This document shows positions 12,283-62,346 of a stretch of 64,000 nt of DNA, in pieces (within the stretch, counting starts at the first letter, position 1; every line of letters begins with the position of its first letter). Below the pieces are notes generated by a model that saw only the letters and a list, made by a program, of their open reading frames with translations, had not been told where the DNA came from and did not search any database. Made by a program: the position numbers and the translations under genes. This DNA comes from an uncultured Bacilli bacterium (GTDB taxonomy: Bacteria; Bacillota_I; Bacilli_A; RF39; UBA660): NCBI GenBank assembly GCA_944371315.1, contig CALVXN010000001.1, positions 2,838 to 66,837 of the forward strand. Reading direction: 5' to 3'.

Positions 12283-12969
12283 TTATATAGATTTAATTAC
12301 TTCAATATAATTATTTTTTAACTTTTCTTGAGCTTCACTATCTAATTTTTTATAATAATCGTCTTCATTGCCAATAATATCATCATAAATTTTTACTAGT
12401 TTTCCATCACTTACTGAAATAAAAGTTGGAGAATTAAGTCTCTTTACACCAGTATCATATAAATTACCATTTGAATCAGGAACATAATATTCTTCTAATT
12501 CTTTCTTTAAAAAATCTATTATATCATAATAAGCATTAGTTCCATCCTTTATCTTTTCGGGTATTAAAGTCCCTGCATATTTATATTCATCCCTCATATC
12601 TTTAATATCAACGTAATATATCTTACTAACATTTTCTTCTTTAGCCGCCTCCAATAAAGGTTCTATAGCATTTCTAGTAAAAGCACATGTTGAGTAACCA
12701 AAAAAAACAAAAGCATTTTCATTTTCTAAAACATCTAATATTTCTTTACCTGTTTTATAAATCATTGGATTATCTTCATTAATTACAACATCAATTATTT
12801 CTTTATCAATATCACTATATTTTAATCCATTATAGCTTTCAAATTCATTTTTAAATTTTAAAGCATCACTTATCTTTTCTTCTTTATGATTTATTATTAA
12901 AAATAAACATAAACCCCCAACTAACAAAACACAAAAACAAATAATAATTATATTAATTTTATTTTTCAT
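12283..12969 (-). CDS. Membrane-anchored thioredoxin-fold protein lacking a CxxC pair
   Basis: N-terminal TM helix; FFGYSTCAFTRNA segment has thioredoxin-like spacing but only a single Cys. Confidence 0.35.
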   Translation of the reverse strand: MKNKINIIIICFCVLLVGGLCLFLIINHKEEKISDALKFKNEFESYNGLKYSDIDKEIIDVVINEDNPMIYKTGKEILDVLENENAFVFFGYSTCAFTRNAIEPLLEAAKEENVSKIYYVDIKDMRDEYKYAGTLIPEKIKDGTNAYYDIIDFLKKELEEYYVPDSNGNLYDTGVKRLNSPTFISVSDGKLVKIYDDIIGNEDDYYKKLDSEAQEKLKNNYIEVIKSI

Positions 12970-13028: not shown

Positions 13029-13700
13029 TTAGTATTCTTTAGAATTATCAAAATCCTTATCCATTAAAAACTCATGAATTATTTCTTCTTCGTTTTCTAC
13101 ACTTACTTCTTCAATTCTATCAACACGTAATTTTTCACTAATTAAAATTGCTTCAACTTTTTTTACAGCCTCTTCCAAATCATCATTAACTACAACATAA
13201 TTATAATTATTAATTTGATTTATTTCATTATAAGCAACTTTAAATCTAGCAATAATTTGTTCATTATTTTCATCACCACGTAATTTAATGCGTCTTTTAA
13301 CCTCACTCATTGATGGAGCCATTATAAAAATCAATATCGTTTCTGGATATAACTTTTTAATTTGCATAGCACCTTGAACATCTATTTCTAAAATAACATC
13401 TTTTCCTTTGTTAAGTTGTTCTAAAACTTCTTTTTTAGGAGTTCCATAATATGCCCCATATTGAACCTGTGCATATTCTAAGAAATCTCCATTATTGATT
13501 TTTTCTTTAAATTCACTATCACTAACAAAATAATAATCAATACCATTAATTTCCGAATCTCTTTTTGGCCTAGAAGTGTAAGACACAGATAAAGTTATAT
13601 CATTATGATTAGATAATAACTTTTTTATAACAGATCCTTTACCTGCACAAGTTGTTCCAGAAATAATTATTAAATCCCCTTGTTTTTTTAATTTTATCAT
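13029..13700 (-). CDS. gmk: Guanylate kinase
   Basis: P-loop GTTCAGKGS; GMP-binding SVSYTSRPKR...E.NGIDYYFVS...F.EYA.V.G.YYGT. Confidence 0.8.
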   Translation of the reverse strand: MIKLKKQGDLIIISGTTCAGKGSVIKKLLSNHNDITLSVSYTSRPKRDSEINGIDYYFVSDSEFKEKINNGDFLEYAQVQYGAYYGTPKKEVLEQLNKGKDVILEIDVQGAMQIKKLYPETILIFIMAPSMSEVKRRIKLRGDENNEQIIARFKVAYNEINQINNYNYVVVNDDLEEAVKKVEAILISEKLRVDRIEEVSVENEEEIIHEFLMDKDFDNSKEY

Positions 13701-13743
13701 ATTTTCCTCACTTTTGCCTATTATAACAAAAAAGAAAGAAGAA

Positions 13744-14646
13744 TCAAACCTCTTTCAAATAATTTATTGCATTTATCGCAGCATTGGTTCCATCACTTAC
13801 AGCAGTTGTAAGTTGTCTAACTTCCTTTTTTCTTACATCTCCTGCTACAAATATACCATCTATATTTGTTATGCAATCTTCTGATGCTAAAACATAGTTA
13901 TTTTCATCAACCTTTATCAAATCGTTTAAATAATCAATTTCTGGGCTTTGACCAATTGCTAAAAACACACCTTCTACATCCAATCTTTTTTCACATTCAT
14001 TACTTTTTACTTCTACACCTACTAATTCATCATTATCTAAAATATATTTATTAACTGTAGTATTATATAAAACCTCTACATTACTTAATGATAAAACATT
14101 ATCAATTACTTTTTTATCGCCTTTTAATTTAGGACCTCTAACAACTAAATATACTTTATTACATAATTTTGATAAATATAAAACACTATTTAAAGCACTA
14201 TTAGCTCCACCAACAACACAAACATCTTTATTTTTATAAAAAGATCCATCACAAACTGTGCAAAAAGATATTCCATTACCTATTAATTCTTCTTCATTAT
14301 CTAAGTTTAAAGTTTTATATTTAGACCCACTTGCTATAATAATACTTTTAGTTTCATAAGTATTTTCATCAGTAATAACTTTTTTTACTTTTCCATTTTC
14401 TATCGATAAAACTTCTTCAATATTTATTTCTCCCCCCAAATCAATTATTTGTTCATATAAATTATTAGCAAAATCCATACCACTTATAGATTTAAATCCG
14501 GGATAATTTTCAACTTTAGAAGAGGAGGTAATTTTACCTCCTATAGTTTCTTTTTCTAATATAACAACTTTTTTTTCTTCTCTTAAAGCATATATTGCAG
14601 CTGTTAATCCAGCAGGACCAGCTCCAACAATAACAATATCATACAT
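13744..14646 (-). CDS. trxB: Thioredoxin reductase, FAD/NAD(P)H type; start overlaps the nrdD stop (TAATG)
   Basis: IVGAGPAGLTAA FAD motif, redox-active CTVCDG, NADPH motif VVGGANSALNS. Confidence 0.8.
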   Translation of the reverse strand: MYDIVIVGAGPAGLTAAIYALREEKKVVILEKETIGGKITSSSKVENYPGFKSISGMDFANNLYEQIIDLGGEINIEEVLSIENGKVKKVITDENTYETKSIIIASGSKYKTLNLDNEEELIGNGISFCTVCDGSFYKNKDVCVVGGANSALNSVLYLSKLCNKVYLVVRGPKLKGDKKVIDNVLSLSNVEVLYNTTVNKYILDNDELVGVEVKSNECEKRLDVEGVFLAIGQSPEIDYLNDLIKVDENNYVLASEDCITNIDGIFVAGDVRKKEVRQLTTAVSDGTNAAINAINYLKEV

Positions 14647-17036
14647 TATTTGTTACTACCTATATATTTTTTTATATTAGAAACATTAGAATATTTATCT
14701 ATATTTTCACCATTTATTGCTAATAATGTTGGAGCTTGCTTAATACCTAATTTTTTACTTAAATCAGCATTTTCTTCTGCATCAATTATTTCATATTTTA
14801 AATTAGCTTTATCTAAAATACTTTTAGCACTTTTACAATTAGGACAATTCTTTCTTGTAAATAAATATAATCCATCTTTTAAATTATCGTTACATTCACA
14901 ATTATCACATTTGCAATCATCACATTTACAATCATCGCTTTCACATTTTTCATGTTTCAAATGAGATTTACTTAAATCATATACTTTACGATTCTTATAT
15001 TCTTCAGCCTTACCATCATTCCAATTTTTAACTGGACGATAATAACCTGTTATTCTACTATAAACTTCTGTTTCTTTATCACAAATTGGACATTTATATA
15101 CTTCTCCATTTATATATCCATGAGTTTGACAGACTGAATATGTCGGAGACATAGTATAATATGGTAATTTATAATTTTCAGCAATTTTTCTAACTAAATT
15201 AGCAGCTGCCTTCCAGTCAGTTAATCTTTCACCTAAAAATGCATGAAATACAGTTCCTGATGTATATAATGTTTGCAATTCGTCTTGAATATCTAATGCT
15301 GCAAAAATATCATCAGTAAAATCAACTGGTAAATGAGAACTATTTGTATAATATGGTGTATGATCAGGTTCACTAGCAGTTATAATATCAGGATATTGTG
15401 CTTTATCATGTTTAGCAAAACGATAAGTAGTAGATTCTGCTGGTGTTGCTTCTAGATTATACAAATCCCCATATTCTTCTTGATAATCACTAAGTTTTTC
15501 TCTCATAAAGTTTAATACATCTTTAGCAAATTTTTGTGTTTTTTCATGAGTTAAATCAGCACGTAACCATTTTGCATTTAATCCTACTTCATTCATACCT
15601 ATTAAACCAATAGTAGAAAAATGATTATTAAATGAACCTAAATACCGTTTAGTATAAGGATATAAACCTTCATTAAGCAATTTAGTTATAACGTTTCTTT
15701 TTATTTTTAATGAACGTGCAGCTATATCCATTAATTTTTCTAGTCTTTCATAAAAATCTTGTTCATCTTTAGCTAAATAAGCAATTCTTGGTAAATTAAT
15801 AGTTACAACACCTATAGATCCAGTAGATTCACCACTACCAAAGAAACCACCAGATTTTTTACGAAGTTCCCTTAAATCAAGACGCAAACGACAACACATA
15901 CTTCTTACATCACTAGGTTCCATATCACTGTTAATATAGTTTGAAAAATAAGGAGTTCCATATTTTGCAGTCATTTCAAATAATAATTTATTATTTTCTG
16001 TTTCACTCCAATCAAAATCTCTTGTAATAGAATATGTTGGAATAGGATATTGAAATCCTCTACCATTAGCATCTCCTTCAATCATTATTTCAATGAATGC
16101 TTTATTAATCATATCCATTTCTTTTTGACAATCTTTATATTTAAAATCTACTTCTTTTCCTCCAATGATAGCATTTAATTCAGCTAAATCATTTGGAACC
16201 GTCCAATCTAAAGTAATATTAGTAAATGGTGCTTGAGTTCCCCACCTACTTGGAGTGTTAACCCCATAAATAAAAGATTGAATACATTGTTTAACTTCAT
16301 GATAATCTAAATTATCAATCTTAACAAAAGGAGCTAAATAAGTATCAAATGATGAGAATGCTTGAGCACCAGCCCATTCATTTTGCATAATACCTAAAAA
16401 ATTTACCATTTGATTACATAAAGTAGATAAATGCTTTGCAGGTGCAGAAGTAATTTTGCCTGGAACACCACCTAAGCCTTCTTGAATTAATTGTTTTAAA
16501 CTCCATCCAGCACAATATCCTGTTAACATAGATAAGTCATGTAAATGAATAGCAGCACTTCTATGAGCATTAGCAATTTCTTCATCATAAACTTCACTTA
16601 ACCAATAATTTGCAGTAATTGCTCCACTATTACTTAAAATTAATCCACCAACTGAATATGTAACAGTTGAATTTTCTTTAACACGCCAATCAGTTACATT
16701 AATATAACTATTTACAACATCTTTATAATCCAAAACCGTTGATTTCATATTACGCATTTTTTCATGTAACTTACGATATAAGATATATGATTTTGCAACA
16801 TCAGAATACCCAGCTTTAGATAAAACTTCTTCTACACAATCTTGAATATCTTCAACTGAAATTATATTGTCTTTTAACTTTGATTCAAATTCAGAAGTCA
16901 CTTTTAGTGCCAAAAAATCAATAACATTATCATCGTATGTTCTTTCTACTGAATCAAACGCTTTTTTAATTGCTTCCTTAATTTTTAAAATATCAAACCC
17001 TACTATTTTTCCTTCTCTTTTTCTTACTTTATACAT
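14646..17036 (-). CDS. nrdD: Anaerobic (class III) ribonucleoside-triphosphate reductase with N-terminal ATP-cone, C-terminal Cys-rich linker and a fused NrdH/glutaredoxin-like domain
   Basis: ATP-cone (VRKREGKIVGFDILKI...); core motifs AHRSAAIHLHDL, MCCRLRLD; Zn ribbon CQTHGY...CPICD; glycyl radical motif RITGYYRPV; then CESDDCKCDDCKCDNCEC and LYLFTRKNCPNCKSAKSIL...APTLLA. Confidence 0.85.
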   Translation of the reverse strand: MYKVRKREGKIVGFDILKIKEAIKKAFDSVERTYDDNVIDFLALKVTSEFESKLKDNIISVEDIQDCVEEVLSKAGYSDVAKSYILYRKLHEKMRNMKSTVLDYKDVVNSYINVTDWRVKENSTVTYSVGGLILSNSGAITANYWLSEVYDEEIANAHRSAAIHLHDLSMLTGYCAGWSLKQLIQEGLGGVPGKITSAPAKHLSTLCNQMVNFLGIMQNEWAGAQAFSSFDTYLAPFVKIDNLDYHEVKQCIQSFIYGVNTPSRWGTQAPFTNITLDWTVPNDLAELNAIIGGKEVDFKYKDCQKEMDMINKAFIEIMIEGDANGRGFQYPIPTYSITRDFDWSETENNKLLFEMTAKYGTPYFSNYINSDMEPSDVRSMCCRLRLDLRELRKKSGGFFGSGESTGSIGVVTINLPRIAYLAKDEQDFYERLEKLMDIAARSLKIKRNVITKLLNEGLYPYTKRYLGSFNNHFSTIGLIGMNEVGLNAKWLRADLTHEKTQKFAKDVLNFMREKLSDYQEEYGDLYNLEATPAESTTYRFAKHDKAQYPDIITASEPDHTPYYTNSSHLPVDFTDDIFAALDIQDELQTLYTSGTVFHAFLGERLTDWKAAANLVRKIAENYKLPYYTMSPTYSVCQTHGYINGEVYKCPICDKETEVYSRITGYYRPVKNWNDGKAEEYKNRKVYDLSKSHLKHEKCESDDCKCDDCKCDNCECNDNLKDGLYLFTRKNCPNCKSAKSILDKANLKYEIIDAEENADLSKKLGIKQAPTLLAINGENIDKYSNVSNIKKYIGSNK

Positions 17037-17054: not shown

Positions 17055-17744
17055 CTAAGATAAAGCACGAATTTCCATATTGGGAAAACTACCTTTCAAA
17101 TTATCATTTATCATCAAAAGCTCATCATGAGAAAACCCATGCAAACTATGATTAATAACATCATCACTATCTTCAAAATTTTGTAAATAATATTTACATT
17201 TATTTCCAATATATTCACATATTTTTCTTAAATCATCAATTGTATGTAATTCTTTTACTATTGTAGTTCTAAACTCATAATCAATATTACTATTTTTTAA
17301 AATATTTATACTTTCTTCAATATTTTTTAATAATACATTTTTACCTACAGTCATTTTATATTTTAAAAATATATTTTTTATATCCATAGCAACATAATCA
17401 ATTAAATTTTCATCAATTAGTTCTTTTAGAACTTTTGGATTGCTGCCATTAGTATCAAGTTTAACAAGTAAACCTAAATCTTTTATTTTTTTTATAAAGC
17501 ACTTAATATCTTTTTGAACTAATGGTTCACCCCCAGTAATAACAACACCATCTAAAATATTTTTTCTTTTATTTAAGTATTCAAATATTTCAGCTTCACT
17601 AATTTTACCCTTATCACATGGTATTAAACTAGAATTTTGACAAAACGAACAATTAAAATTACAACCCTTAGTAAAAATGGTGCAAGCCACCTTTTTAGGA
17701 AAATCTAATAATGTAACTTTTTGTAATCCTTCAATATAAATCAC
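17055..17744 (-). CDS. nrdG: Anaerobic RNR activating enzyme (radical SAM)
   Basis: Radical-SAM cluster CNFNCSFCQN; size and position immediately upstream of nrdD. Confidence 0.8.
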   Translation of the reverse strand: MIYIEGLQKVTLLDFPKKVACTIFTKGCNFNCSFCQNSSLIPCDKGKISEAEIFEYLNKRKNILDGVVITGGEPLVQKDIKCFIKKIKDLGLLVKLDTNGSNPKVLKELIDENLIDYVAMDIKNIFLKYKMTVGKNVLLKNIEESINILKNSNIDYEFRTTIVKELHTIDDLRKICEYIGNKCKYYLQNFEDSDDVINHSLHGFSHDELLMINDNLKGSFPNMEIRALS

Positions 17745-19717
17745 TTTACCACCACCTTTACTACTTTTACCTTTTCTTTTTCTAATTCCTTTATATAATC
17801 TTTTATTTTAGTTTTATTTCTATCAACATTTAATACTAAATTCAAACTACAAATTTTTTGATATTTTACTATATATTGATATAAAGCTTTATTACTTAAA
17901 TCATTAAACAAACTACTTAAACTAGAATAAAAATCTTTTTTCAAAATCTCTATATTTCCAACCATAGCTTTATCTAATGCTAATAAATTTTTATTTACTG
18001 TTTTTGAACTTTCCTCTGCTAAAATAAAATTTAATTTTAAATCAGATTTATATCTATTTGTTTTTTCTTTCATAAACTCAACAATTTTTAAACCAAAATC
18101 CAATTTAACAACAGCTTTTTCAGAAACATCAAATAAAGCATCTAAACATTCTACCAAACCAGAAAAATTAATACATAAAACCCCATTTTTTAGAACTTTC
18201 CTTACTTTTTGATTACAATCAAGTTTTTTAGAGTCAAACAATATATTATTTTCAAAAATACCATTAAAATTCTCTTTATATAAACTAGATTGAAAATCAT
18301 ATCTTTGTATTAATTCATTTTTAGATAATTCTAATAAATCATCAAGTTCAGCAAAAAAGTCATTTATACTTTCCTTATTATATTTTAATCCTAGCCTAGC
18401 CAAGTTAATTGTAATTGATGAATTAAGTATTCTACCTCGAGATGTTTGTAAATCATTATTAACATTTTCATTAATTATAATTTGATTACTAAACGTTTCT
18501 AAATCATCATCATATTCATTATTATCTAAATATAAAATAATAATATTATTTTTGTTGTAAACCTCATCAACTATATAATCTAATGAAGTATTTTTTTTCA
18601 CCTTACAAATAGTAGCAATATTTTTAAAACTAATTTTGTTTAAAATCTCAAAATATTTTTCTTTAAAATACATTGATTCAAAATCATCCATTTCACTTAA
18701 ACTAATTGACAAAGAAGTATCACTATATTTTAAATAATTATCATTAAAGTTTTTTAATAAAAGTTCAATATTTTTTAACAATTTAGCTTCTATATAATCA
18801 TTAGTTATTCTATATATATCCCAAAAATAATTTTTTATTTTTTCATTTGGTAAAATTGCATCAAAAGCATCAATATTTATTTTAATAGTATTATTCTCAA
18901 CTAATATATTTTTTAAATCATTAAAATCAAAGAATTCATATATTCCTAATACTTTAAAAAAACACTTTAAATTATCCAAAAATTTATTATTAAAATCAGA
19001 AATCATTACATTTTTGTATATTTGATCTAAATTTGAAATAGTTTGTTCACCATATTGTTCACTTTTAAATCTATTTACTATATTTAATATTTTTAAAGTA
19101 ATTTCATCAATATCATTTGATTCGATACTACTAAAATCTAAATGAGATGAAGAAGTGGTTTTTAATGCATAAGATTTTAAATCATCAATATAAATCCTTC
19201 CCTCTTCATGGGCACGAACATATTTTGATTCTAAAAGATAAGCTTTGGCAAATTCCTGAGAAATGGTCTTTCCAAAATTTAACAACAAATCGTCAGGATT
19301 AGCATTCTTAGAATTTTTAGCAGTCAATCCTATTTTTTCAATAGCTTTAACAAACTTATGTTGTTCTTTTACCGAAAAAGCTTCTCTTGAAGCGGCTCTA
19401 CGCAACCGATATTCATTAAATTTTTTATATACATCATGATATCCGGTTTTTTTAAGCACATTTTCAATAATGTCTTGTATATCTTCAACATTAATGGTTT
19501 TTCTATTTTCATAAGATTCAACTATAAATTTTAAAACTTGATTATAAACTCTATTTATTTTTTTTTCATTATTTATTTCGTTTTCATCACTACTATCAAA
19601 AGCTTGTTTAATAGCAACAGCTATTTTAACACTATTAAATGATACTCGTTGACCACTACGTTTAACTACTACTAAATTTTCTAAAACTGTGCTATTTTCC
19701 ATTTCTCTTAACCTCAA
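17741..19717 (-). CDS. NrdD-like paralog: ATP-cone and N-terminal NrdD core homology are retained, but the catalytic Cys pair, Zn ribbon and glycyl-radical motif are absent
   Basis: VVKRSGQRVSFNSVKIAVAIKQAF (ATP cone), EDIQDIIENVL, AHEEGRIYIDDL aligns with nrdD AHRSAAIHLHDL; no CC, CxxC or RxxGY motifs in the remaining 450 aa; ATGA overlap with nrdG. Confidence 0.6.
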   Translation of the reverse strand: MRLREMENSTVLENLVVVKRSGQRVSFNSVKIAVAIKQAFDSSDENEINNEKKINRVYNQVLKFIVESYENRKTINVEDIQDIIENVLKKTGYHDVYKKFNEYRLRRAASREAFSVKEQHKFVKAIEKIGLTAKNSKNANPDDLLLNFGKTISQEFAKAYLLESKYVRAHEEGRIYIDDLKSYALKTTSSSHLDFSSIESNDIDEITLKILNIVNRFKSEQYGEQTISNLDQIYKNVMISDFNNKFLDNLKCFFKVLGIYEFFDFNDLKNILVENNTIKINIDAFDAILPNEKIKNYFWDIYRITNDYIEAKLLKNIELLLKNFNDNYLKYSDTSLSISLSEMDDFESMYFKEKYFEILNKISFKNIATICKVKKNTSLDYIVDEVYNKNNIIILYLDNNEYDDDLETFSNQIIINENVNNDLQTSRGRILNSSITINLARLGLKYNKESINDFFAELDDLLELSKNELIQRYDFQSSLYKENFNGIFENNILFDSKKLDCNQKVRKVLKNGVLCINFSGLVECLDALFDVSEKAVVKLDFGLKIVEFMKEKTNRYKSDLKLNFILAEESSKTVNKNLLALDKAMVGNIEILKKDFYSSLSSLFNDLSNKALYQYIVKYQKICSLNLVLNVDRNKTKIKDYIKELEKEKVKVVKVVVK

Positions 19718-19964: not shown

Positions 19965-20041
19965 GGCGATGTAGCTCAGTTGGCTAGAGCATCCGGTTCA
20001 TACCCGGCAGGTCGTGTGTTCGAATCACACCGTCGCTACCA
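19965..20041 (+). tRNA. tRNA with CAT anticodon (Met, initiator or Ile-lysidine not distinguishable)
   Basis: GGCGATGTAGCTCAGTTGGCTAGAGCATCCGGTTCATACCCGG..GTGTGTTCGAATCACACCGTCGCTACCA, 77 nt with encoded CCA. Confidence 0.85.
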
Positions 20042-60633: not shown

Positions 60634-61512
60634 CTAATCTTTCATATCATAAATAACTCTAGCACCATCTGATGTAGCAGTTACTAATTGATAAACATCC
60701 TTTTTAATTACATCCCCAATTGCATATACATTTTTAATCGGAGTTTCTAAATTTTCATTTACTATAACGTAACCATTTTCATCTAATATTTTCTTATCAA
60801 CAATCTCAGTTGCTGGTCTATAACCAATATAAATAAATACACCAGAAACATCAATAGAATTACCATTATCTAATGTAATAGATTTTAATTTACCATCAAC
60901 CTCATTCATATTTTTTATATTGGCATTATAAATTATTTCAACTTTAGGATTATTTTTAACTTCTTCAACAAGCATTTCTTCTCCCCGAAATCCATCACGA
61001 CGATTTATTAAATAAATTTTATTAGCAATATTGGATAAATACATTGTTTCTTGTAAAGCACTGTTACCAGTTCCAACAACAGCTATATCTTTATCTTTAT
61101 AAAAAAAGGCATCACACATAGCACAAGTTGATAAGCCATGACCTAATAAATCTTTTTCATTATCTAACCCTAAATATTTCGGCTTTCTTCCCATAGCTAA
61201 TATAACTTTTTTAGATTTATATTCATTATTTGTAGTTTTAATAATCTTTTCTTCTTTATCTAAATCTAAATTTACAACTTCTTCTAAGACATATGGTATA
61301 TCAAATGATTCTACCTGTTCTAATAATTTTTGAGCAAAATCTGGCCCAGTAATATCAATAAGTCCTGGATAATTACTAATCTTATCTATGCTATTTAATA
61401 ATCCTCCAGGCATACCTTTATCAATGATTAAAACCTTTTTATTACTTCTTTTAGCATAAATAGCAGCAGTAATTCCACTAATACCCATACCTATAATTAT
61501 AATATCATACAT
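60634..61512 (-). CDS. Second thioredoxin-reductase-like flavoprotein
   Basis: IIGMGISGITAA FAD motif, CAMCDA redox CxxC, VVGTGNSALQE NAD(P)H motif. Confidence 0.7.
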   Translation of the reverse strand: MYDIIIIGMGISGITAAIYAKRSNKKVLIIDKGMPGGLLNSIDKISNYPGLIDITGPDFAQKLLEQVESFDIPYVLEEVVNLDLDKEEKIIKTTNNEYKSKKVILAMGRKPKYLGLDNEKDLLGHGLSTCAMCDAFFYKDKDIAVVGTGNSALQETMYLSNIANKIYLINRRDGFRGEEMLVEEVKNNPKVEIIYNANIKNMNEVDGKLKSITLDNGNSIDVSGVFIYIGYRPATEIVDKKILDENGYVIVNENLETPIKNVYAIGDVIKKDVYQLVTATSDGARVIYDMKD

Positions 61513-61524
61513 ATTATTTCTCCT

Positions 61525-62346
61525 TTAAAATCTAACTGTTTCCTCAACATCTTGATTATATAAATCCTCATAACGACCTTTTCTACTTGTAATCATTACA
61601 ATTAATACACCAATTACAATCATTATAATTGATACTATTTGAGCCATTTTAAAGCCACCTAACATTAATGAATCAGTTCTCATAGATTCTATAAAAAATC
61701 TTCCTAAACCATACCACATTAAATATAATGCAGTTACTTGACCAACCTTAGTTATTTTAATTCTTCTAATTATTAAAATTAAAATAAAGCCAATTATACA
61801 CCATAGCGATTCATAAAAAAATGTCGGCTCATAATAAACTCCCCCAATATTCATACCATCAATTATGAATTGAGGAATATGAAGATTTTGTAAATGTTGC
61901 AAACTAGTTACAGCACCATGAGCTTCTTGATTAAAAAAATTTCCCCATCTTCCTATTGCTTGAGCAAGTAATAAAGAAGGAACAATAAAATCCAACATTC
62001 TTATAGTTCTAATATTGTATTTTTTACAATAAATTATGCAAGTAATTAGACCAAAAATTATTCCTCCATGGATTGCAAGTCCACCTTCCCAAATTTTAAA
62101 TATATCTAAAAAATTAGAATAAAGATTTAAATTAAATAATACATAATAAACTCTTGCTCCTATTATACCCATAATAATAGTCCAAAAACACAAATTAAAT
62201 ACAAAATCAGTAGGATATTTATAACGTTTTGCTTCTTTTAGAATCATATAAATACCCAAAGTTGCTCCAATAACTATTAAAAGAGAGTACCACTCTAATT
62301 TAAAATTACCTATTGTTAAAATATAACGACTCATAAGCATCACCAT
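61525..62346 (-). CDS. lgt: Prolipoprotein diacylglyceryl transferase
   Basis: Lgt signature GRWGNFFNQEAHG; 7 TM helices. Confidence 0.85.
   Translation of the reverse strand: MVMLMSRYILTIGNFKLEWYSLLIVIGATLGIYMILKEAKRYKYPTDFVFNLCFWTIIMGIIGARVYYVLFNLNLYSNFLDIFKIWEGGLAIHGGIIFGLITCIIYCKKYNIRTIRMLDFIVPSLLLAQAIGRWGNFFNQEAHGAVTSLQHLQNLHIPQFIIDGMNIGGVYYEPTFFYESLWCIIGFILILIIRRIKITKVGQVTALYLMWYGLGRFFIESMRTDSLMLGGFKMAQIVSIIMIVIGVLIVMITSRKGRYEDLYNQDVEETVRF

Follow-up and report, generated by a model that had tools for sequence, protein, structure and literature searches.

Fusion of a redoxin domain to anaerobic ribonucleotide reductase in gut Clostridia and Bacilli, with a candidate dedicated thioredoxin reductase

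A 64,000-nucleotide stretch of DNA from an uncultured Bacilli bacterium (GTDB lineage RF39, UBA660; GenBank assembly GCA_944371315.1, contig CALVXN010000001.1, positions 2,838 to 66,837), referred to below as the window, has a G+C content of about 24% and encodes a class III ribonucleotide reductase (RNR) whose catalytic subunit, NrdD, is extended at its C-terminus by a redoxin domain. The gene for this 796-residue protein runs directly into one for a paralogue of thioredoxin reductase (TrxR). We put at roughly 65% the probability that the operon to which both appear to belong encodes a thiol-dependent class III RNR of the NrdD2 type with a tethered protein reductant, to which electrons are relayed from the TrxR paralogue. 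This relay is the best reading because three features occur together: a conserved fusion, a thiol-type active site, and a dedicated adjacent TrxR. The domain content, the set of catalytic residues, the conservation of the fusion, and the synteny with a distinct TrxR lineage were observed directly.

Results

The catalytic subunit and its active site

The 796-residue protein scores 1152 bits against NCBIfam model NF006126 (cut-off 548) and 526 bits against TIGR02487 (cut-off 326), and by these models is classified as the class III RNR catalytic subunit NrdD. A preliminary description of the same DNA, made from its letters without database searches, had listed an ATP-cone, a full catalytic core with a Cys-Cys pair, a zinc ribbon, the glycyl-radical motif RITGYYRPV, and a C-terminal extension, and Pfam matches and motifs place every one of these where it had been reported (Table 1). 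Among solved structures, the core is closest to T. maritima NrdD (4coi/4u3e). In alignment with that enzyme Cys175 corresponds to Cys125, the beta-A cysteine conserved in all class III RNRs, the finger-loop residues Cys381 and Cys382 correspond to Cys329 and Cys330, and Glu529 falls in the column of Glu495, which Burnim et al. (PMC9669993) use for the proposed proton donor.

For counts across species, the redoxin domain alone, as a seven-sequence alignment, served as query in a genome scan. The scan gave at least 600 pattern matches and 591 stretches confirmed by tblastn; the best 80 of these 591, with a single genome per species, form the sample of 80 loci used throughout. The finger loop reads RSMCCR in all 78 loci whose open reading frame (ORF) covers that region, and the pattern NLEATPAE, which contains the Glu, is matched in 79 of the 80.

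The NrdD2 subtype is defined by a third active-site Cys together with an active-site Glu (Wei et al. 2014, as summarised in PMC4493059). Because the double-Cys loop supplies the third Cys and Glu529 is present, we assign the active site, on its residues, to NrdD2, the thiol-type set. Two other assignments were considered and rejected. The formate-dependent NrdD1 type has a single-Cys MGCR loop and no Glu, and has only the Met in common with the MCCR loop found here. The methanogen NrdD3 type has a QCCR/A loop with neither Met nor Glu, whereas Met380 and Glu529 are both present here.

The C-terminal redoxin domain

That the extension matches redoxin profiles, as had been proposed, is borne out by the Glutaredoxin model PF00462, which finds residues 725 to 772 with 34.4 bits (2.6e-8; gathering score 22.9). 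Redoxin tails from eight other species' genomes, mostly cultured isolates, score 30 to 35 bits against the same model, also above threshold. The order described earlier likewise holds, with a Cys-rich repeat (CESDDCKCDDCKCDNCEC, residues 698 to 715) followed by a domain that carries CPNC at residues 731 to 734 and Ala-Pro-Thr, in the cis-Pro loop, at residues 768 to 770. CPNC is found in 80 of the 80 loci, and the Ala-Pro-Thr is equally invariant. An AlphaFold2 model of the domain alone has a predicted local distance difference test (pLDDT) value of 95.5 and the order beta-alpha-beta-alpha-beta-beta-alpha, with CPNC at the N-terminus of helix 1.

A point-for-point match to NrdH had also been claimed, and this does not stand. 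The NrdH-redoxin model TIGR02194 gives 29.1 bits against a cut-off of 85.75, the CVQC and WSGFRP motifs are absent, and the fold is no closer to NrdH than to thioredoxins or KaiB, all of which score alike in Foldseek (template modelling, or TM, score 0.69 for C. glutamicum NrdH, 4fiw). Classical glutathione-dependent glutaredoxins have a CPYC-type site and the glutathione-binding motifs TVP and GG-x-DD. Here the site is CPNC, the loop is APT, GG-x-DD is missing, and the GRX_bact/Grx3 model reaches 23 bits against a cut-off of 90, so membership in that family was rejected. Thioredoxin was rejected as well: PF00085 scores 21.6 bits, below its gathering score of 23.5, there is no WCGPC, and the 76-residue domain is without the N-terminal beta-alpha unit. 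The YruB model scores 26 bits against a cut-off of 88.55. From profiles and the predicted structure, the domain is best regarded as a separate type, a minimal thioredoxin-fold redoxin with a CPNC site, and not as NrdH. Three short proteins of 82 to 90 residues (P0248, P0250, P0251) resemble it, and may be either fragments of genes or split forms that stand alone.

The fusion is genuine and widespread

The identical 796-residue protein is encoded on 17 contigs from public assemblies, and four of those places, each from a different sample, have the same four genes. The redoxin domain is in frame with the NrdD core in 79 of the 80 species genomes, and the sets examined contain isolates, Faecalicatena orotica DSM 1287 and M. 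gnavus among them. The preliminary description had allowed that the extension might be a separate ORF joined to nrdD by a sequencing error. Apart from a broken reading frame at a single one of the 80 loci (L061) and one truncated variant (P0065), we found no support for a frameshift or assembly error of this kind, and the independent assemblies together with the 79 in-frame fusions leave it next to no chance of being the explanation. The fusion is therefore confirmed as genuine and conserved, in at least 79 species.

Two sets of homologues and a search with the tail extend this result. Among the best 120 homologues of the 796-residue protein (81 to 100% identity), all but two truncated entries have the ATP-cone, NRDD, and redoxin domains, the last recognized by PF00462 except in P0040, which is listed with PF00085. 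This set includes Candidatus Avacholeplasma faecigallinarum and metagenome-assembled genomes named 'Bacilli bacterium'. The 120 relatives of the Faecalicatena orotica protein, from Mediterraneibacter gnavus, F. contorta, and Muricomes among others, are also fused. The last 157 residues of the fusion protein, searched exhaustively against 1.84 billion representatives, gave 502 matches at E<=1e-10, including full-length fusions, some of them interrupted by inteins. Most hosts are Clostridia and Bacilli from the guts of animals. Among those in culture are Catenibacterium mitsuokai, Faecalicatena orotica, F. faecalis, Extibacter muris, Ruminococcus turbiniformis, and Pseudobutyrivibrio. In the databases the fused proteins are annotated plainly as 'ribonucleoside triphosphate reductase'.

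Several entries in these sets have unusual structures. Inteins occur in many fused NrdDs (P0146, P0156, P0170, P0181, P0186, P0188, P0209, P0222, P0232), with a recurrent insertion site at the finger-loop motif that reads SMC|PL...THN|CRLRL or, in P0186, SM|AIM...THQ|CCRLRL, the junctions being approximate. In P0040 (950 residues) about 155 residues of the NrdD core are duplicated internally, and in P0182 (790 residues) a lipoprotein-like N-terminus replaces the ATP-cone; both are probably assembly chimeras.

A variable linker, Cys-rich in the window's protein

Between core and redoxin lies a low-complexity acidic linker, in which the segment CESDDCKCDDCKCDNCEC has seven Cys in 18 residues. 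The preliminary description had suggested that it might be an extra metal site, a notion favoured by this density, by a Cys frequency of 3.4% in linkers against 1.6% in the NrdD core across the 80 species, and by a close Cys pair (CxC, CC, or CxxC, mostly CxC) in the linkers of 23 of them. However, the coding DNA of the segment is a 15-nucleotide tandem repeat in three copies, and the copy number is unequal among near-identical strains, with two copies or a partial copy in proteins of 791 (P0033) and 793 (P0032) residues. Across the 80 species the linker is 12 to 71 residues long (median 30), is predicted to be disordered in the window's protein, and contains from none to six Cys: none in 36 species, one in 18, two in 20, and more in six. 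A metal-binding site required for function is therefore very improbable, and we reject it as a feature of the family. The linker Cys pairs, found among other loci in L004, L005, L020-22, L026, L031, L045, L049, L052, L062, L066, L069, and L077, could represent an optional shuttle dithiol or compositional drift.

A thioredoxin reductase lineage linked to the fused gene

The gene downstream of the fusion had been called a bona fide trxB. Its product meets the motif criteria for low-Mr TrxRs, including GAGPAG for FAD binding and GIFVAGD, and its closest solved structures are all TrxRs (E about 1e-62), so the family assignment stands. At 321 bits, however, it stays below the equivalog cut-off of TIGR01292 (343.45), and its nucleotide site is degenerate. 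In low-Mr TrxRs the NADPH site is canonically marked by GGGxxAxE and VxxxHRRDx[F/L]R (PMC5627308); the operon TrxR has GGANSALN and VYLVVRGPKLK, with VRGP in place of HRRD.

A second TrxB, of 292 residues, is encoded in the window at 60634-61512 on the minus strand, adjoining lgt (61525-62346). It has CAMC, and its NADPH motif (GTGNSALQE and NRRDGFR) is close to canonical; its identity with the operon TrxR is 41%. The lgt-linked copy is probably the housekeeping enzyme, and its presence is our reason for regarding the operon TrxR as a dedicated paralogue. Across the sampled loci, 46 of 77 have a TrxR-like gene that begins no more than 200 nucleotides downstream of the fused nrdD, and 53 of 74 have nrdG on its upstream side. 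Every one of 49 TrxRs adjacent to nrdD in other species is nearer to the operon copy (241 to 371 bits) than to the lgt-linked copy (159 to 219 bits), which suggests that a TrxR lineage travels with the fused gene.

Within that lineage the NADPH site is far from uniform. In an alignment of 50 neighbouring TrxR-like genes, HRRx is kept in 30 and TLFD..FFGD/A stands in its place in eight, while the rest have QDLP, VRxx, YRGN, or others. The eight (L012, L021, L022, L027, L028, L045, L060, L062) combine TLFD(K/R)FFG(D)/A with GD[GA]NTALQY, or GDANSALQY in L028; further nrdD-linked TrxRs have QDLP, QNLE, or QQFD at the NADPH motif. These alignments indicate that the pyridine-nucleotide site was lost or changed repeatedly among nrdD-linked TrxRs. 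In many Clostridia with a fused nrdD the donor is probably NADPH. For the operon TrxR, given its degenerate signature, the donor may be NADPH, NADH, or a ferredoxin- or flavodoxin-type protein. Of the complete relay proposed earlier, from NADPH through TrxB and the redoxin domain to NrdD, we thus keep the order TrxR, redoxin, NrdD as the best reading and set aside NADPH as the assured source.

A proposed electron relay and its alternatives

We infer every electron-transfer step of the relay, and the donor to TrxR, as follows. NrdG would place a radical on Gly664, where it would be stored, and a thiyl radical would then form on Cys381 or Cys382 of the finger loop. Cys175 and the other finger-loop Cys would provide two electrons and form a disulfide, with Glu529 as acid/base. 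The CPNC redoxin domain, swinging on its disordered linker of about 34 residues, would reduce this disulfide in its own or the partner subunit, and would in turn be re-reduced by the TrxR paralogue through FAD and the Cys129/Cys132 pair.

Characterized relatives bear on this scheme. In N. bacilliformis NrdD, a disulfide between a finger-loop Cys and the beta-A Cys is reduced by thioredoxin (PMC9669993). T. maritima NrdD was inactive when given formate and depended on a protein factor of more than 10 kDa (PMC4493059), which favours the relay. MCCR enzymes, those with the Met present, make up 83% of the double-Cys class and have the parts for formate or for thioredoxin chemistry (PMC9669993). 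Because the loop of this group is ambiguous as to reductant, a covalently attached redoxin is informative evidence for the thiol route.

Several points weigh against the relay. Met380 is kept, as in formate-dependent enzymes, so that formate chemistry is possible. The operon TrxR does not have the canonical NADPH motif. About 40% of fused genes have no TrxR gene adjacent to them. The redoxin domain falls under the cut-off of every specific redoxin equivalog, so that family membership is no guide to its partner specificity. Finally, the full-length AlphaFold2 model (pLDDT 65.5, predicted TM score 0.52), probably owing to a shallow alignment of 28 sequences, is too poor for judging the reach or docking of the redoxin, and the finger loop and the glycyl-radical region are themselves of low confidence in it. 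The earlier claim that the enzyme depends on thiols rather than formate accordingly remains probable in its first half, through the thiol-type residues Cys175, Cys381-382, and Glu529, but the exclusion of formate does not, given Met380.

Two alternatives involve formate, and we consider both unlikely. In one, the redoxin is a maintenance or activation factor that keeps Cys residues of the glycyl domain, zinc ribbon, or active site reduced for NrdG, for example after exposure to oxygen, while formate drives catalysis through a Met380-Cys175 thiosulfuranyl radical. Thioredoxin does activate the formate-dependent class III RNR of E. coli (Padovani 2001, cited in PMC4390871), every one of the 78 loci that span the finger loop has Met380, and either reductant is possible in MCCR enzymes (PMC9669993). 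Yet the third Cys and Glu529 are what define the thiol-dependent subtype, the T. maritima enzyme is inactive with formate and needs its protein factor, and a stoichiometric tether with a dedicated reductase would be costly for occasional repair. In the other alternative, formate and the tethered redoxin both drive turnover, the choice depending on metabolic state. Met, Cys-Cys, and Glu do stand together in one active site, and the possibility has been raised for the 83% of double-Cys enzymes that have the Met (PMC9669993), but no class III RNR is known to run on both reductants, and nothing in the window bears on formate supply. Among the window ORFs that were checked there is no PFL-like gene and no other redoxin gene, although 64 kb cannot settle the formate metabolism of a genome. 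The tethered relay from TrxR is the reading we prefer to both.

Operon layout and a catalytically dead paralogue

The four minus-strand genes, with ORFs of 658, 229, 796, and 300 residues, lie in a row with overlaps or very short gaps and look like one operon, in the order NrdD-like paralogue, nrdG, nrdD::redoxin, and TrxR paralogue. The fused gene starts with ATG, with GGAGGAGG upstream of it, and its TAA stop shares bases with the ATG of the TrxR gene in the sequence TAATG, an overlap that had been noted before. Promoter-like hexamers are found upstream of the first gene, and the operon likely ends where the TrxR gene does, exactly at a terminator-like hairpin that has a T-run. NrdR boxes sought upstream of the operon gave 19 matches against 22.8 expected, with none in the promoter region.

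The first gene encodes a relative of NrdD that has an ATP-cone (Pfam 2.9e-14) and matches NRDD (1e-27) over profile positions 6 to 440 of 562 only; hhalign relates it to the NrdD family with a probability of 97.6%. It has no beta-A Cys, no finger-loop Cys pair, no zinc ribbon, and no glycyl-radical loop, and must therefore be catalytically dead. Its true start is likely the ATG at 19702, and gene callers give it 653 residues. Members of this family, about 640 to 670 residues long, share invariant ATP-cone residues but no invariant Cys in the family alignment. Orthologues were found in Bacilli-branch loci only (L001-3, L010, L025, L058, L065, L072), always upstream of nrdG. The paralogue evolves much faster than NrdD: the window's copy shows 58% identity to its homologue set of about 650 residues, against 90% between the window's NrdD and a 785-residue homologue set, one contig of 1,675,395 bp being present in both. 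A role as a regulatory pseudo-enzyme is a reasonable guess from these features. We found no description of a dead NrdD paralogue in the literature.

Beyond the operon, a tRNA-like sequence, read by eye, lies just upstream of the promoter region at about 19965-20040 on the plus strand. After the terminator come guanylate kinase (13029-13700, minus strand) and then a 228-residue protein (12283-12969, minus strand) that has a hydrophobic segment at its N-terminus and weakly matches a PedC/BrcD-type disulfide isomerase (25 bits; cut-off 120).

Table 1. Features of the operon region, with positions in the window and the basis of each assignment.
Feature	Position	Strand	Basis
nrdD::redoxin fusion gene, 796 residues	14646..17036	-	ORF, Pfam, NCBIfam, T. 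maritima alignment, homologues
ATP-cone, residues 3-92	16761..17030	-	PF03477, 6e-22
NrdD catalytic core including glycyl-radical domain, residues 121-686	14979..16676	-	PF13597, 3.9e-192, profile 1-562 complete
Cys175, beta-A cysteine (T. maritima Cys125)	16512..16514	-	alignment; role from PMC4493059
Finger loop Met380-Cys381-Cys382-Arg383 (MCCR type), Cys-Cys pair within SMCCRL	15888..15899	-	alignment; motif classes from PMC9669993
Glu529, proposed proton donor (T. maritima Glu495)	15450..15452	-	NLEATPAE aligned with NIEQVPAE; column defined in PMC9669993
Zinc ribbon Cys636/His639/Cys649/Cys652 (three Cys and one His)	15081..15131	-	T. maritima NrdD alignment
Gly664, glycyl-radical site in RITGYYRPV (661-669)	15045..15047	-	motif and alignment
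Low-complexity acidic linker rich in Cys, residues 687-720 (about 34 residues)	14877..14978	-	predicted disordered, pLDDT <50 for 667-717
15-nucleotide tandem repeat encoding (D-D/N-C-K/E-C) x3	14892..14936	-	TRF: period 15, 3.0 copies, 86% matches
C-terminal redoxin domain, residues 721-796 (76 residues)	14649..14876	-	PF00462; AlphaFold2 model; Foldseek
Redox-active Cys731-Pro-Asn-Cys734 (CPNC)	14835..14846	-	alignment of relatives
Low-Mr TrxR-like flavoprotein gene, 300 residues	13744..14646	-	TIGR01292 321 bits (cut-off 343.45); Pyr_redox_2 7e-44
TrxR redox-active Cys129-Thr-Val-Cys132	14251..14262	-	motif and alignment
Degenerate 2'-phosphate (NADPH) site, VYLVVRGPKLKG for VxxxHRRDxxR	14119..14154	-	alignment; motif from PMC5627308
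nrdG, radical-SAM activase of class III RNR, 229 residues	17055..17744	-	TIGR02495 NrdG2 222 bits (cut-off 131); Pfam Radical_SAM and Fer4_12
NrdD-like paralogue (ATP-cone and NrdD-like barrel), operon's first gene, 658-residue ORF	17741..19717	-	Pfam, hhalign
Terminator-like hairpin and T-run, exactly at TrxR gene end	13734..13756	-	hairpin with T-run

Discussion

For Met-Cys-Cys class III RNRs, the majority of double-Cys enzymes, a tethered redoxin and a reductase inherited along with it make a strong genomic case for the thiol route. NrdG, NrdD::redoxin, and TrxR would form a self-contained system of three proteins, available from gut species that are abundant and can be cultured, M. gnavus for one. 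The comparison of genomes also exposes an RNR-dedicated TrxR lineage with varied cofactor sites. More tentatively, and with the odds against the proposal as a whole, a large class III clade may have independently evolved the equivalent of the class I/II C-terminal redox tail as a tethered redoxin, sometimes with a CxC dithiol in the linker. Its TrxR lineage would repeatedly have lost the NADPH site (VRGP, TLFD, QDLP), so that some anaerobes would draw on NADH or ferredoxin/flavodoxin-type donors for dNTPs, and the dead NrdD paralogue of the Bacilli branch would be a separate allosteric or regulatory subunit.

The arrangement is widespread in databases and functionally undescribed, while thioredoxin-dependent NrdD (2014) and a Grx::NrdB fusion are already known. 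The preliminary description knew of no fused version. One is on record, the Grx:NrdD fusion WP_082039398.1 of Lachnospiraceae bacterium TWA4, classed as NrdDd, a single entry without analysis in Table S1 of PMC6187632, and among public genomes the architecture is a common one. The TWA4 protein possibly has the same architecture. Beyond that entry, we found no record of a Grx domain on NrdD in reviews and phylogenetic treatments of RNR extensions. That 2018 RefSeq survey lists one Grx:NrdD, yet the fusions of M. gnavus and C. mitsuokai, isolates whose sequences have long been available, pass the current PF00462 threshold.

With the NrdD2 RNRs of N. bacilliformis and T. maritima (Wei et al. 2014) the present enzyme shares the beta-A Cys, the double-Cys loop, the Glu, and, if the relay is correct, a thioredoxin-type reductant. 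It differs from them in that the redoxin is covalently attached at the C-terminus, a TrxR paralogue lies in the operon, the loop is MCCR and not SCCR, and an ATP-cone is present at the N-terminus. In Facklamia ignava, the Grx domain of a Grx::ATP-cone::NrdB protein was shown biochemically to be an efficient RNR reductant (PMC6187632). There too a domain of glutaredoxin fold is part of an RNR polypeptide, but it is fused at the N-terminus of NrdB, the radical-generating subunit in an aerobic class I RNR, and depends on glutathione, whereas the present domain extends the C-terminus of the catalytic subunit in an anaerobic glycyl-radical enzyme and is linked to a TrxR.

The NrdH-redoxin of class Ib RNRs with its TrxR, and the NrdH-like redoxin of methanogen NrdD3 systems, offer a further parallel, as small proteins of glutaredoxin fold that are dedicated to an RNR and take their electrons from a disulfide reductase, not from glutathione. 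The present domain is nevertheless not an NrdH by model score or signature motifs, and in NrdD3 systems the enzyme lacks the Met and Glu and the redoxin is a separate protein.

A functional analogy also exists with class I and class II RNRs, in which a C-terminal Cys pair or, in class II, a Cys-rich zinc-finger tail (PMC5704485) acts as a flexible C-terminal dithiol that feeds the active-site disulfide. Such a C-terminal redox motif was reported to be absent from class III RNRs (Lundin et al. 2015), and the fusion described here would extend to class III a kind of C-terminal redox shuttle otherwise ascribed to classes I and II only. In classes I and II the tail is a short peptide or zinc finger reduced by an external thioredoxin or glutaredoxin; here the tail is itself a folded redoxin.

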